DNA of 57,523 nt from positions 1 through 57,523 of the forward strand of contig JAEYPG010000150.1 in NCBI GenBank assembly GCA_023410975.1, given 5' to 3'. Shown here piece by piece: positions 8,755 through 31,590 of this stretch. Positions within the stretch are counted from its first letter, which is position 1; every line of letters starts with the position of its first letter. The DNA comes from Pseudomonadota bacterium (GTDB lineage Bacteria > Pseudomonadota > Gammaproteobacteria > Burkholderiales > Burkholderiaceae_C). A program made the position numbers and the translations under genes. The notes under the pieces are model-generated. The model saw only the letters and a program-made list of their open reading frames with translations. It had not been told where the DNA came from and searched no databases.

Positions 8755-8771
8755 GCGACACGACCTGTCGC
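8755..8771. promoter_or_regulatory. Palindromic operator GCGACA-cgacc-TGTCGC upstream of recC (putative WYL-regulator site)
   Basis: Perfect 6-5-6 inverted repeat ending 77 bp before the recC ATG. Same motif occurs twice at 31525-31590. Confidence 0.65.
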
Positions 8772-8847
8772 GTCCATATGTTTCAATGGTTGCTGAACGT
8801 ATTTCGACCACGGTGCCGACGCTGGCTCAACCAAGGAAACCGCCCCG

Positions 8848-11800
8848 ATGCCTGCCTCCCTGCCCACCGGCCTGATGCTCATCCACGGCAACCACCCGGA
8901 GGAGCTGCGCCAGTTGCTGGTGTCGTGGCTGCGCAGCCACCCGCTGGCCCCGCTGGAGACCGAGACGATCCTCGTGCAGAGCAATGGCATCGCGCACTGG
9001 CTGCGCCTGGCGCTGGCGCAGGACGCCGAGGGCGAGGGCAGCGGCGAGGCACCCGGCTGCGGCATCGCCGCCGCGCTGGAGCTGTCGCTGCCGGCGCGCT
9101 TCCTGTGGCGCGCCTACCGCGCCGTGCTCGGCGCCGAGGAGGTGCCCGAGCAGTCGCCCTTTGACAAGCCGCTGCTGGTGTGGCGGCTCATGCGGCTGCT
9201 GCCGCAGCTGCTCGAGCAGGAGGTCTATGCACCGCTGCTGCGTTTCCTGGCCTCGGACGAGGACCTGCGCAAGCGCTTCCAGCTCGCCGAGCGCCTGGCC
9301 GACCTGCTGGACCAGTACCAGGTGTACCGGGCCGACTGGCTCGCGGCCTGGGCTGCAGGGAACGACGTGCTCGTCCGTGCCGATGGCACGCGCCAGCCGC
9401 TGCCCGAGGAGCAGCGCTGGCAGGCGAGCCTGTGGCGTGCGCTGCTGTCGGACGTCGAGGGCGAAGGTGCCGGGCTGCCGGCACAGCGTGGCCGGGCCGC
9501 GGTGCACGAGGCCTTCCTGCAGCGCGTGGCGCAGTGGGGCGACGGCGAGCGCCCGGCGGGCCTGCCGCGCAGGCTCGTCATCTTCGGCATCTCCGCCCTG
9601 CCCAGGCAGTCGCTGGAAGTGCTGCACGCGCTGTCGCGCTGGACGCAGGTGCTCATGTGCGTGCACAACCCCTGCGAGCACCACTGGGCCGACATCGTTG
9701 CTGACAAGCACCTGCTGCGCGCCACGCGCAGCCGGCAGCAGCGCCGCGAGGGCATGCCCGAGCAGATTGCCGAGGAGGGTCTGCACCTGCACGCGCACCC
9801 GCTGCTGGCGGCCTGGGGGCGGCAGGGTCGCGACTTCATCGGCTTGCTCGACGAGTACGACAGCGATGCCGAGCGCGCGGGCTACCGCGTGCACTTCGAG
9901 GCCATCCGCCAGCGCATCGACCTGTTCGCCAGCCCCGGCCAGTCCTGCCTGCTGCACCAGCTGCAGGACGACATCCGCGACCTGCGCCCGCTGCGCGAGA
10001 CGCGCCAGCGCTGGCCGGCGGTGCAGCCCGATGACGGCTCGATCCAGTTCCACGCCGCGCACAGCCCGCAGCGCGAGGTGGAGGTGCTGCACGACCAGCT
10101 GCTGGCCGCGTTCAACCAGGATCCCGGCCTGCGCCCGCAGGACGTCATCGTCATGGTGCCGGACATCGACGCCTACGCGCCCCACATCCAGGCCGTGTTC
10201 GGCCTGGCCGAGCGCGGCGACGCGCGCCACATCCCCTTCCACGTCGCTGACCTCGGGCGCCGCCAGCATGACCCGCTCGTCAGCGCCCTGGCACGGCTGC
10301 TGGAGCTGCCCAACGCGCGCGTGGCCGCCAGCGACGTGCTGGCGCTGCTCGAGGTCGAGGCCGTGCGCCGGCGATTCAGCATCGAGGACGATGCCGTGCC
10401 GCTGCTGCAGCGCTGGATCCAGGGGGCCGGCGTGCGCTGGGGCCTGCACGCGGCACACCGCGGCCAGCTCGGCCTGCCCGACACGTCCACCGCCAACACC
10501 TGGCTGTTCGGCCTGCGCCGCATGCTGCTGGGCTACGCGGTCGGCGGCACCGGCGGGCCCTGGCGCGACATCGAACCCTTCGACGAGATCGGCGGCCTGG
10601 AGGCGGTGCTGCTCGGGCCGCTGGCCCGGCTGCTCGAGCGGATCGAGGCGGCCTGGCGCGTCCTCGGCGAGGACGCCACCGCCCAGCAGTGGTGCCAGCG
10701 CCTGCGTGCCCTGGTGTACGATTTCTTCGACCCCGGACAGGGCAGCGACGCCTACACGCTGCAGCAGCTCGACGAGGCCCTGGAGCGCTGGCAGGAAGGC
10801 TGCGAGGCGGCGCGGCTGGACGCCGCGCTGCCGCTTTCGGTCGTGGCCGAGCACTGGCTCGCGCAGATCGAGGAGGGGGGCTTGTCGCAGCGGTTCCTCG
10901 GCGGCGCGGTGACGTTCGCGACGCTCATGCCGATGCGCGCCATCCCCTTCCGGTACGTGGGCCTGCTGGGCATGAACGACGGCGACTACCCGCGCACGCG
11001 CACGCCCATGGATTTCGACCTCATGGGGCGCGACTACCGCCCGGGCGACCGTTCGCGGCGCGAGGACGACCGCTACCTGTTCCTCGAAGCGCTGCTGTCG
11101 GCGCGCGAGCGGCTGCTCGTGTCGTGGGTCGGCCGCAGCGTCAACGACAACACCGTGCGCCCACCCTCGGTGCTGGTGAGCCAGCTGCGCGACCACCTCG
11201 CGGCCGGCTGGCGCCTGGCCGGCTGCGAGGCGCGCTCGCAAGCCCTGCTGGAGGCGCTCACCGTCGAGCACCGCCTGCAGCCCTTCAGCCCGGACTACTT
11301 CGCGTCCAGCCCCGGCAGCCGGCTCTTCACCTATGCCGGCGACTGGCGCCAGGCCGACGACCGTCCCGTCCCGGGCGGGGAGAGCCTGCCGCCGCTGGCG
11401 CGCACCGAGCCCCTGCGGCTCTCCGAGCTCGGCAGCTTCCTGCGCCACCCCGTCAGGGCCTTCTTCCGGGAGCGGCTCAAGGTGAGCTTCGACCTGGAGG
11501 ACGCCGCCAGCGAGGACCAGGAGCCCTTTGCGCTCGACGGGCTGCAGATGTGGGCGCTGTGGGACGAGCTCATCGGCCTGCAGGCCCGGGCGCTGCGGGA
11601 CGGGCAGCCCCGGCAGGCGGCACTGGACGAGGGCCTGGCGCGGCTGCAGCGCCGCGGCGTGCTGCCCTGCGGCGCCTTTGGCGAGCTGCTGGCCGAGCGG
11701 CTGGCCGAGCCTATGGAAGACCTGTTCAGCCGCTATGAGCAGGCCCTGGAGCGCTGGAGCCAGCCCGCGCCGCACGACGAGGAGGTGCGCTGGCGCTGCA

Positions 11801-30498: not shown

Positions 30499-31479
30499 TC
30501 AGGCCACGCACGCGTCGGACACCCGGTTGGTCAGACCTGCCCTCGATATCGGCATGCCGTGGCAGCTGTTGATGGCTTGATTGGCGGCAAGCTTTTCGAT
30601 CCAGCGTCGCGGCAAGCAGTCACCCAGGCCGGCCACGACGCGCCGGTGCTCAAGCAGCGCCAGCCGCCATTGGGAATCGGTCGCGTTGGTATACACGGCG
30701 CCGCGGTCGATGAACAAGCGCGAACGGTGCAGCCTCAACGCCGGCGCAGGGGTGTGGCCAACGTAGGTCAGCGCCAACCCGGGCTCAACGGGCTTGTCGG
30801 AGACAATGAGCACGTCGCCCGCAAGGCAGGCTCGTGCGCCGGGCGAACACCGGCCTTCCAGCTCGAAGGCGAGCGCTCGGCTCCAGAGCGCGGGGTCTGC
30901 CAGTTCGCTGGGTATCGGTTCGAGCTGGCACAGGCGCTCCTGCAGCGTCGCTTGACGTCGCCGGCCGCGAGTGCGCACTGGACTCACCAGCGGCTGCAAG
31001 TCGGTATGCGCGACGTTGAAGGGCATGGCCGTGTCCTCGACCGCCAGCACCAGCGGCAGTTGCTCAACGACGGTGGCCAGTTCCGCAAACTCTTCCAGGT
31101 CACGCCGGCTAGCCGTCTCCAGCAACGCCTCAGCCCAGGCCCCGCCGTTGTCGGTGAACTCCTCGGAATCGTGCCAATCGCTGTGGCGACGACCGAGCCA
31201 GGTCAGCAGCATCGCTTCGTGGTTGCCGAGGCATGCATGCACCCACGGCTCGCGCAGCATCCGCAGACATTGGAGGCTTTCCGCGCCGCGGTCGATGAGG
31301 TCGCCACCAAGCAGCAGTCGGTCACCGGCATCGGGGTCGAAGCGCGCTGCGTCCAGCGCCTGCATGAGGGCACGGTGGCAGCCATGCAGATCGCTGGCAA
31401 TGAAGTCGCGGCCAAAGGCGTTGCACGCGAGCCGGCGCACCGTGGGCACCGCGGTGGAGGTGGAGTGGGGCGTGGGCAA
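30499..31479 (-). CDS. Calcineurin-like metallophosphoesterase (PphA / lambda-phosphatase-like)
   Basis: SDLHG, GDLIDRG, GNHE, VGHTP and IDRGAV motifs. TTG start at 31479 with AGGAG RBS. Confidence 0.88.
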   Translation of the reverse strand: MPTPHSTSTAVPTVRRLACNAFGRDFIASDLHGCHRALMQALDAARFDPDAGDRLLLGGDLIDRGAESLQCLRMLREPWVHACLGNHEAMLLTWLGRRHSDWHDSEEFTDNGGAWAEALLETASRRDLEEFAELATVVEQLPLVLAVEDTAMPFNVAHTDLQPLVSPVRTRGRRRQATLQERLCQLEPIPSELADPALWSRALAFELEGRCSPGARACLAGDVLIVSDKPVEPGLALTYVGHTPAPALRLHRSRLFIDRGAVYTNATDSQWRLALLEHRRVVAGLGDCLPRRWIEKLAANQAINSCHGMPISRAGLTNRVSDACVA

Positions 31480-31524
31480 GCGGTGGCTCCTGAAAGTGCA
31501 ACGGTGAGCATGATCAGGCCGTGT

Positions 31525-31590
31525 TGCGACAAGACGTGTCGCATGGGAACCGCGGCGATAAAGCCACCGGATGCGACATGACCTGTCGCA
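31525..31590. promoter_or_regulatory. Two palindromes TGCGACA-N5-TGTCGCA (31525-31543, 31572-31590) in a divergent promoter; putative WYL operator
   Basis: Two perfect 7-5-7 inverted repeats between the phosphoesterase-WYL operon and the rightward operon. Confidence 0.75.

Follow-up and report, generated by a model that had tools for sequence, protein, structure and literature searches.

Introduction

Does one WYL-type regulator, acting through a shared palindrome, tie an accessory RecBCD nuclease to the operons around the regulator's own gene, and would it do so as a repressor or as an activator? The question is raised by the window, a stretch of 57,523 nucleotides (nt) that forms contig JAEYPG010000150.1 of a Pseudomonadota bacterium of the Burkholderiaceae_C (C548 in our numbering of the 757 contigs of its 6.17-Mb genome, G000; other contigs are named in the same way). 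The original prediction, made from the letters of this stretch, placed the palindrome before recC and twice between a WYL operon and an FtsZ-like operon, and proposed a plasmid-encoded, LexA-independent circuit comparable to BrxR and CapW, with RecBCD products as the WYL ligand. Our analysis suggests that the palindromes are sites of a homodimeric activator with winged helix-turn-helix, WYL and WCX domains (wHTH-WYL-WCX), of the DdaA/DriD kind, controlling the two divergent operons and the accessory recBCD. We give this reading a probability of roughly two in three.

Results

The palindromes cluster on contigs with WYL genes

The window contains three exact copies of GCGACA-N5-TGTCGC, hereafter boxes A, B and C (Table 1). 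Their spacers are CGACC, AGACG and TGACC, respectively, with GAC common to all. None of 100 shuffled sequences reached three exact matches, confirming the palindromes and their shared core. In the window, no enrichment was found when two mismatches were allowed (eight sites against 6.45 expected) or with a 6-nt spacer. In the genome, five exact copies were found against 1.35 expected from the half-site frequency, three of them on the window contig and one each on C395 and C264; other spacer lengths gave zero to six copies. The genome-wide total is therefore not striking, but the clustering of the boxes on the window contig is. The looser form GCGAC-N7-GTCGC occurs 14 times in the genome, eight of them on C548, C395 and C264, each of which carries a WYL gene. 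When the 6.17-Mb genome was scanned with a weight matrix trained solely on 26 boxes from other genomes, the window sites took ranks 1, 2 and 6, the recC box of C395 came 23rd, and seven of the eight top matches lay on contigs carrying WYL genes. All three boxes are intergenic once the phosphoesterase gene is started at TTG 31479 and the rightward operon at ATG 31638. A weaker box-like site at 1088-1104 (two mismatches, matrix score 12.8, no -10-like hexamer at 9-10 nt) is probably a chance occurrence.

The motif and the regulator resemble DdaA and DriD

The palindromes match the DdaA box, CGWCA-N5-TGWCG (PMC12392091), and fit the DriD box, CGAC-N7-GTCG (PMC10853764, PMC9186387). DdaA and DriD are single-stranded DNA (ssDNA)-sensing activators (PMC13010146). 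Compared with its paralogue on C683, the window WYL gene lacks 2 nt near 29740, which breaks the frame in two. Read through with X at the break, its product shares 70% identity with an intact protein of Azohydromonas aeria and 33% with a protein of Acinetobacter baumannii (L057), which we took as DdaA because it matches all four DdaA residues, R47, R51, Y173 and Y200, named in PMC13010146, rather than by accession. The intact A. aeria protein also has a 100% match in a genome of the host's genus, so that the host is assigned to Azohydromonas. The recognition helix reads RTVQRD in the window protein and RTIQRD in DdaA, with both arginines aligned to R47 and R51, and the motifs YRG and FYM align with the ssDNA-sensing Y173 and Y200.

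In a tree of 38 rows, with the C409 part standing in for the partial row L086, the window protein falls in a supported 16-row clade (96/91) together with L057. The C264 and C687 proteins lie outside this clade on long branches. So does a protein that we take to be CapW/BrxR-like, the one stand-in for that group, with which the window protein did not group; it gave no BLASTP match to the window WYL. The intact A. aeria WYL paralogue showed distant similarity (E 0.0045) to the WYL chain 7u02, presumably DriD.

The two bases missing at the frameshift are present in three of the four runs compared (X2, X3 and X6; most pieces 90-99% alike). The fourth, X1 (at least 99% alike), has no insertion there, but it extends just ~6-11 letters beyond the frameshift, so the break is not bridged; the frameshift may belong to the source DNA or may be an error of the assembly. 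A different 2-nt insertion, at 29793, is common to X2 and X3, X3 has two further single-base indels, and the C395 WYL copy contains stops. The WYL gene thus seems to have been lost repeatedly, with the proviso that low-depth contigs can hold errors. Such repeated breakage fits the loss of an activator of costly genes better than the loss of a repressor.

Promoter geometry argues for activation at boxes B and C

DriD covers the -35 position and keeps a constant distance to the -10 element (PMC13004042); in the DriD-activated promoter printed in that paper, this distance is 10 nt by our own count. The same 10 nt separate boxes B and C, although not box A, from -10-like hexamers, and the offset recurs at the C395 box pair, the C395 phosphoesterase box and the C264 box. 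Among 34 boxes, taken from WYL and recC loci chosen for having boxes and in part mutually related, 19 were followed at 9-10 nt by a -10-like hexamer, against 2.1 on average and at most 9 in 5000 shuffles. Held-out boxes from loci fetched later gave seven of 11 (mean 0.8), and all 11 at a looser cut-off. A sigma-70 consensus scan passed no promoter at the recC site or at the divergent site, as is expected where the -35 element is missing. No RNA data set was found that covers this stretch.

These features suggest how the locus might work. When ssDNA builds up through DNA damage, end resection or incoming DNA, a WYL dimer would bind the box and, lying over the -35 position, would help RNA polymerase to start at the weak -10 element 10 nt further on. 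Box B would in this way drive the predicted operon of the phosphoesterase, hypothetical and WYL genes, amounting to autoregulation, and box C the rightward operon. Box A would bring the accessory recBCD, and possibly the DUF262 pair by read-through, under the same regulator.

Two other explanations of the boxes bear on this evidence. Repression as in BrxR/CapW would have the apo WYL protein on all three boxes until ssDNA releases it. The boxes do overlap promoter regions, and CapW-controlled expression is induced by RecBCD products (PMC11662680), but the motif, the clade and the fixed 10-nt geometry match activators, and the apparently broken state of several related WYL copies also fits activator loss better. 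We consider repression at all three boxes improbable, and the repressor analogy of the original prediction is not borne out. More improbable still is that the boxes are non-functional relics or terminator-like RNA hairpins. Box A was scored as a terminator-like stem with T-rich bases after it, and the local regulator is broken; against this, the sequence and not merely the pairing is conserved across many genomes, the spacing to the -10 hexamers is fixed, and boxes B and C received no terminator call.

An accessory recBCD is an occasional member of the predicted regulon

The window recC, recB and recD scored above curated cut-offs and retain their catalytic motifs. The genome holds three recBCD sets. 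In a FastTree phylogeny of 46 rows, the window set groups with those of C395, A. aeria and Zoogloea dura, far from the copy on C145, which has no box and groups with genes of the same genus. The tree thus places the window recBCD as an accessory copy apart from that of the host, which supports this part of the original prediction.

In other genomes, four of 99 recC starts have a box no more than 300 nt away, against ~0.1 expected; shuffled recC leaders gave a box in ~0.1% per leader. The loci cover 29 of the 76 matches in the family and some of the 123 in the order, and by set the counts were 1/13 (L019 without upstream DNA), 0/3, 0/29, 2/37 (L129 gave no match), 1/16 new loci (two repeats dropped) and 0/1. 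One of the four boxes, at L148, is one base off the strict consensus, and all four promoters show the 9-10 nt offset to a -10-like hexamer. One genome with a boxed recC, G418, also has, far off, a DdaA-like WYL gene with two boxes and a homologue of the open reading frame (ORF) at 33882; the ORF divergent from that WYL gene is 5'-nucleotidase-like by eye. In G661 and G378, members of a separate Burkholderiales family, a DdaA-like WYL gene directly follows recD (L132, L133) and recC has no box. The Burkholderia-group plasmid loci YI23 and PGU19, with recBCD and a more distant WYL gene, showed no good box at recC. In other genomes of the genus, strong-looking boxes were tied to no window gene except the A. 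aeria box at 4989. Conservation of the motif before recC is therefore sporadic, and recC is a recurrent but occasional recruit of the predicted box regulon. At another locus (L008, 5310-5420), a boxed promoter leads into a short recC stub; an intact recC, with a degenerate box of its own, lies 4.7 kb downstream.

Within the genome, the link between box and recC recurs on a second island, formed by C395 (1-19481; L002) and C409 (1-6023; L003), with recBCD, a phosphoesterase, a Sir2-family gene, a 5'-nucleotidase, a WYL pseudogene and five boxes. C395 ends within recB, and C409 holds the remaining recB and recD. A pair of C395 boxes precedes the Cys-rich ORF, one the phosphoesterase gene and one recC; the last matches 11 of 12 positions and lies in the same place as box A. 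Phosphoesterase and recC are divergent neighbours on C395 with one box each, so the link between box and recC survives rearrangement.

Several observations weigh against an activator regulon that includes recC. The closest recC, that of A. aeria (80%), lacks a box, even though 2.5 kb upstream there is a WYL gene whose own operon is boxed. G545 has a boxed recC but no DdaA-like WYL gene, and the metagenome-assembled genome G696, which may be incomplete, has a boxed recC and no WYL match. In genomes with both a DdaA-like WYL gene and recC, an exact box at recC was found in one of 11. The local WYL gene is frameshifted in the assembly, and the rows of the WYL tree include no validated DriD, CapW or BrxR sequence. 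DdaA boxes lie ~50 bp before the start site (PMC12392091), somewhat further than the geometry here implies. Finally, the two island recC boxes, those of the window and of C395, do not follow the 10-nt geometry: TATGTT lies 5 nt and TyCAAT 10 nt from each.

The last point raises the possibility that control at recC has the opposite sign. Box A would stand half a helical turn off its -10 element (TATGTT, with GCGACA as the -35 element and a 16-nt spacer), and ssDNA-loaded WYL would block RNA polymerase there, shutting off the RecBCD that makes its ligand, while activating its own and the neighbouring operon. The window and C395 have the box and ATATGTTyCAAT in common, in leaders that have otherwise diverged, and an A2/T6 hexamer at 9-10 nt is absent from both island recC promoters but present at boxes B and C and at the four boxed recC promoters elsewhere. 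DriD binds on the opposite face of the DNA and so does not clash with sigma region 4 (PMC13004042), and a 5-bp shift would undo such avoidance. These are, however, two related examples only, flank composition alone would yield such a hexamer 5-6 nt from the box with probabilities of 0.06 and 0.10, and the TTCAAT or TCCAAT found 10 nt from the box, after a TG, may serve as a weak -10 element that depends on an activator. A. aeria keeps TGTTnCAAT but not TATGTT, and a box-plus-leader scan of viral contigs gave no further example. We regard opposite control at recC as unlikely.

Which WYL protein may read the boxes

The proposal that a single WYL protein co-controls these genes holds only in part: a WYL operator is shared by several promoters, but the local gene is frameshifted, the genome has six WYL genes, and the same box co-occurs with a second WYL type. 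Of 28 DdaA-like WYL genes, ten have a box at a distance of up to 1.5 kb, against one of 29 recC loci. WYL genes of the C264 type show the same box and the same 10-nt geometry at seven of 22 loci in the family, so the box is common to more than one WYL type and its reader may act in trans. On C264 itself (L001), positions 1125-6743 hold a WYL gene, a NERD-helicase gene and a boxed dynamin-like gene.

The boxes could then be read by a WYL protein of the C264/C527 type (helix RTIQRD) by the copy on C683 and C409, or by more than one of these proteins, with the window gene a relic. This explanation, which overlaps with the activator reading and differs in who reads the box, is tentative but carries more weight than any of the other alternatives. 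It agrees with the C264-type loci and with the top matrix rank of the C264 box before the dynamin-like gene, and C683 and C409, which overlap by 122 nt, together give an open WYL frame of 345 amino acids (aa). On the other side, box B is directed at the operon that contains the local WYL gene, the C683 copy has an altered helix (RAVQRD) and a one-residue gap, a transposase-like ORF cuts the phosphoesterase gene upstream of it, and C683 joins the C395 copy, with its stops, equally well. In the activator reading, the break in the local gene would leave the boxes either silent or read in trans by a paralogue.

LexA independence and the plasmid question

The host has lexA and recA, with a LexA box at recA, and no CTGT-N8-ACAG site was found in the window. 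The proposed LexA independence is thus supported, and the box circuit would be additional to the host LexA system, running in parallel with it. No DdaA-like control of host recA was seen, as the LexA box is present and the upstream side has no WYL box; for uvrA and ssb, which were not inspected singly, we note that the top matrix matches sit on island contigs.

The claim of a plasmid location found no support in the genes: no replication or transfer gene was found among the scanned ORFs of the window contig, which is not a whole replicon and may still be part of a plasmid, and the 763-aa ORF at 54442 gave no plasmid match. In A. aeria, a box precedes an operon of AAA-ATPase and WYL genes 5 kb upstream of recC, beside a Rep3-type gene. 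This initiator had no match on the window contig and matched 12 other contigs, which suggests many plasmids or Rep-like genes in the genome. The plasmids YI23, SFA1 and PGU19 carry related recBCD genes, and by this analogy a plasmid location of the window contig is plausible.

Genes around the boxes and elsewhere in the window

The features discussed are collected in Table 1.

Table 1 Predicted boxes, promoter elements and genes of the window.
Feature	Position	Strand	Remarks
Predicted WYL box A (DdaA/DriD type)	8755..8771		77 nt before recC start; paralogous box at C395:12703
Predicted WYL box B	31526..31542		Exact motif and matrix match
Predicted WYL box C	31573..31589		Exact motif and matrix match
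-10-like TATGTT	8777..8782	+	5 nt after box A; atypical offset, putative; same in C395
Alternative recC -10, TTCAAT	8782..8787	+	Offset 10 from box A; without -11 A
-10-like GATCAT	31510..31515	-	10 nt from box B, facing phosphoesterase, hypothetical and WYL genes
-10-like CACCAT (3/6)	31600..31605	+	10 nt from box C, facing rightward operon
recC, accessory copy	8848..12381	+	
recB	12378..16046	+	Helicase and nuclease motifs
recD	16043..18124	+	Walker A and DEASM
DUF262 (GmrSD_N) and DUF7834 protein	18243..19772	+	~120 nt after recD
DUF262 and GmrSD_C (DUF1524) protein	19769..21760	+	
ORF paralogous to 31829..32653, then PF06189 5'-nucleotidase	23836..25633	+	PADLOC PDC-S08
wHTH-WYL-WCX regulator, DdaA clade	28878..29916	-	Pfam WYL and WCX; frameshift near 29740 (2 nt short)
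172-aa ORF, no known family	29916..30434	-	Between phosphoesterase and WYL genes
Calcineurin-like (PphA/ApaH-like) metallophosphoesterase	30499..31479	-	First gene of leftward operon; start TTG 31479
57-aa Cys-rich ORF	31638..31811	+	Related stretch after paired boxes on C395
274-aa ORF, no known family	31829..32653	+	Paralogues at 23836, C395 and C409
FtsZ-fold protein	32650..33885	+	Degenerate GTP-binding loop; weak N-terminal FtsK-gamma-like match
135-aa ORF, no Pfam family	33882..34289	+	Recurs beside WYL and recBCD (C395, G418, several Burkholderia-group plasmids)

The ORF at 32650-33885 has an FtsZ fold, according to a profile match (E 4e-32, from an alignment that includes an FtsZ-like row), an Atlas model (TM 0.54 to an FtsZ cluster) and Foldseek on a low-confidence model; its structure predictions are poor (mean pLDDT 41 and 39). 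The GTP loop GGGTGTG of FtsZ is replaced by DSDEEAN, and the FtsK-gamma match is below threshold (E 0.0064). A word-index search returned only the ORF itself and a profile search four proteins, and there is no counterpart on the paralogous contig C395. A dominant-negative role in division is conceivable, but the division inhibitor of the original prediction is speculation, given a lone ORF with a degenerate GTP loop that is absent from the paralogous island. The 135-aa ORF that follows is likely a standing member of WYL/recBCD modules. The 274-aa product and that of 23836-24573 are paralogous (32% identical).

The assignment of a putative type IV restriction pair after recD stands as regards its DUF262 and DUF1524 domains; linkage to recD is absent in the two closest loci. 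PADLOC matches of the pair are partial, best to Orf5, HEC-06 and SspE and weak to mREase_IV. The genome has no second copy of the pair, and the genes downstream of recD in C409 and in A. aeria do not match it. The ~120-nt gap between recD and the pair showed no terminator-like site. The pair of genes at 23836 has no box in front, and the same pair stands beside the WYL gene on C409.

Four stretches of the window (5897-7417, 24551-25633, 27439-28938 and 46521-50957) contain candidate defence genes: dynamin-like, PDC-S08 5'-nucleotidase and PD-(D/E)XK PDC-S26-like nuclease genes, as well as genes for a UDG-like protein, an HNH nuclease and a methyltransferase-HNH fusion. None of these candidates had a strong box. 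At 36314-44365, the window carries an IS630 fragment, a DEDDh exonuclease, a ProQ/FinO protein and a tyrosine recombinase with an IS91-family transposase.

Discussion

Our preferred reading of the locus is an accessory repair and defence island that carries a predicted DdaA/DriD-type regulon and whose local regulator is broken in the assembly, at the probability given above. It would supply defined targets for a DdaA homologue that is carried on an island and belongs to the homologues outside the Moraxellaceae, whose targets the DdaA paper leaves open, and would indicate that a spare RecBCD can be recruited into a regulon of this type. The regulon is otherwise one more case of a recently described, common kind of switch. 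The half-turn shift at the recC box is the part most worth bench testing, as three boxes with two offsets allow a cheap test of whether phasing flips a WYL activator to a repressor. A mobile element may even have wired its own RecBCD to an ssDNA-sensing WYL protein, the shifted box making a self-limiting, LexA-free circuit in which operator phasing alone sets the sign and whose WYL gene the hosts repeatedly break. This is doubtful, a shade more so than opposite control at recC by itself. If true, one ligand-bound WYL protein would activate its own operon and a defence/division-arrest operon and repress the nuclease making its ligand.

A literature survey mostly confined to papers outside subscription returned nothing on WYL with RecBCD and inverted repeats, plasmid recBCD, a second island recBCD or frameshifted WYL activators in this arrangement. 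Parts of the picture are already in print. For RecBCD products as a WYL ligand, there is the precedent of CapW (PMC11662680), and DdaA control of recC has been predicted for those Alcanivoracaceae and basal Moraxellaceae in which LexA is retained, where recC is one of a few predicted targets (PMC12392091 and a preprint). DdaA homologues outside the Moraxellaceae have been described as probable regulators of nearby genes (PMC12392091).

Among the known systems, PafBC of mycobacteria gave the best PDB sequence match to the WYL protein (E 1.6e-5) and is ssDNA-activated, but acts as a heterodimer on a non-palindromic site (PMC10853764), unlike the window boxes. CapW/BrxR share the wHTH-WYL-WCX build, a palindromic site, a defence-island setting and RecBCD products as signal (PMC11662680), and differ from the window protein in clade and in the predicted sign of control. 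DriD of Caulobacter crescentus, whose box lies on the -35 position with constant spacing to the -10 element, likewise has a divergent promoter at its own gene and is LexA-independent, and its targets include a division inhibitor (PMC9186387, PMC10853764, PMC13004042). Its preference for AT-rich spacers contrasts with the GC-rich spacers of the window, and the recC box offset differs from that of the DriD promoter. DdaA of Acinetobacter and other Moraxellaceae has the same box, WYL clade and key residues (PMC12392091, PMC13010146) and, as here, a regulon of repair and defence genes (PMC12392091). In contrast to DdaA, the window regulator is island-borne and its gene frameshifted, in a betaproteobacterium with an intact LexA system; an alanine of DdaA (TFALHR) is a lysine in the window protein; the host recA has no such box; and the boxed recBCD is a third, accessory copy.

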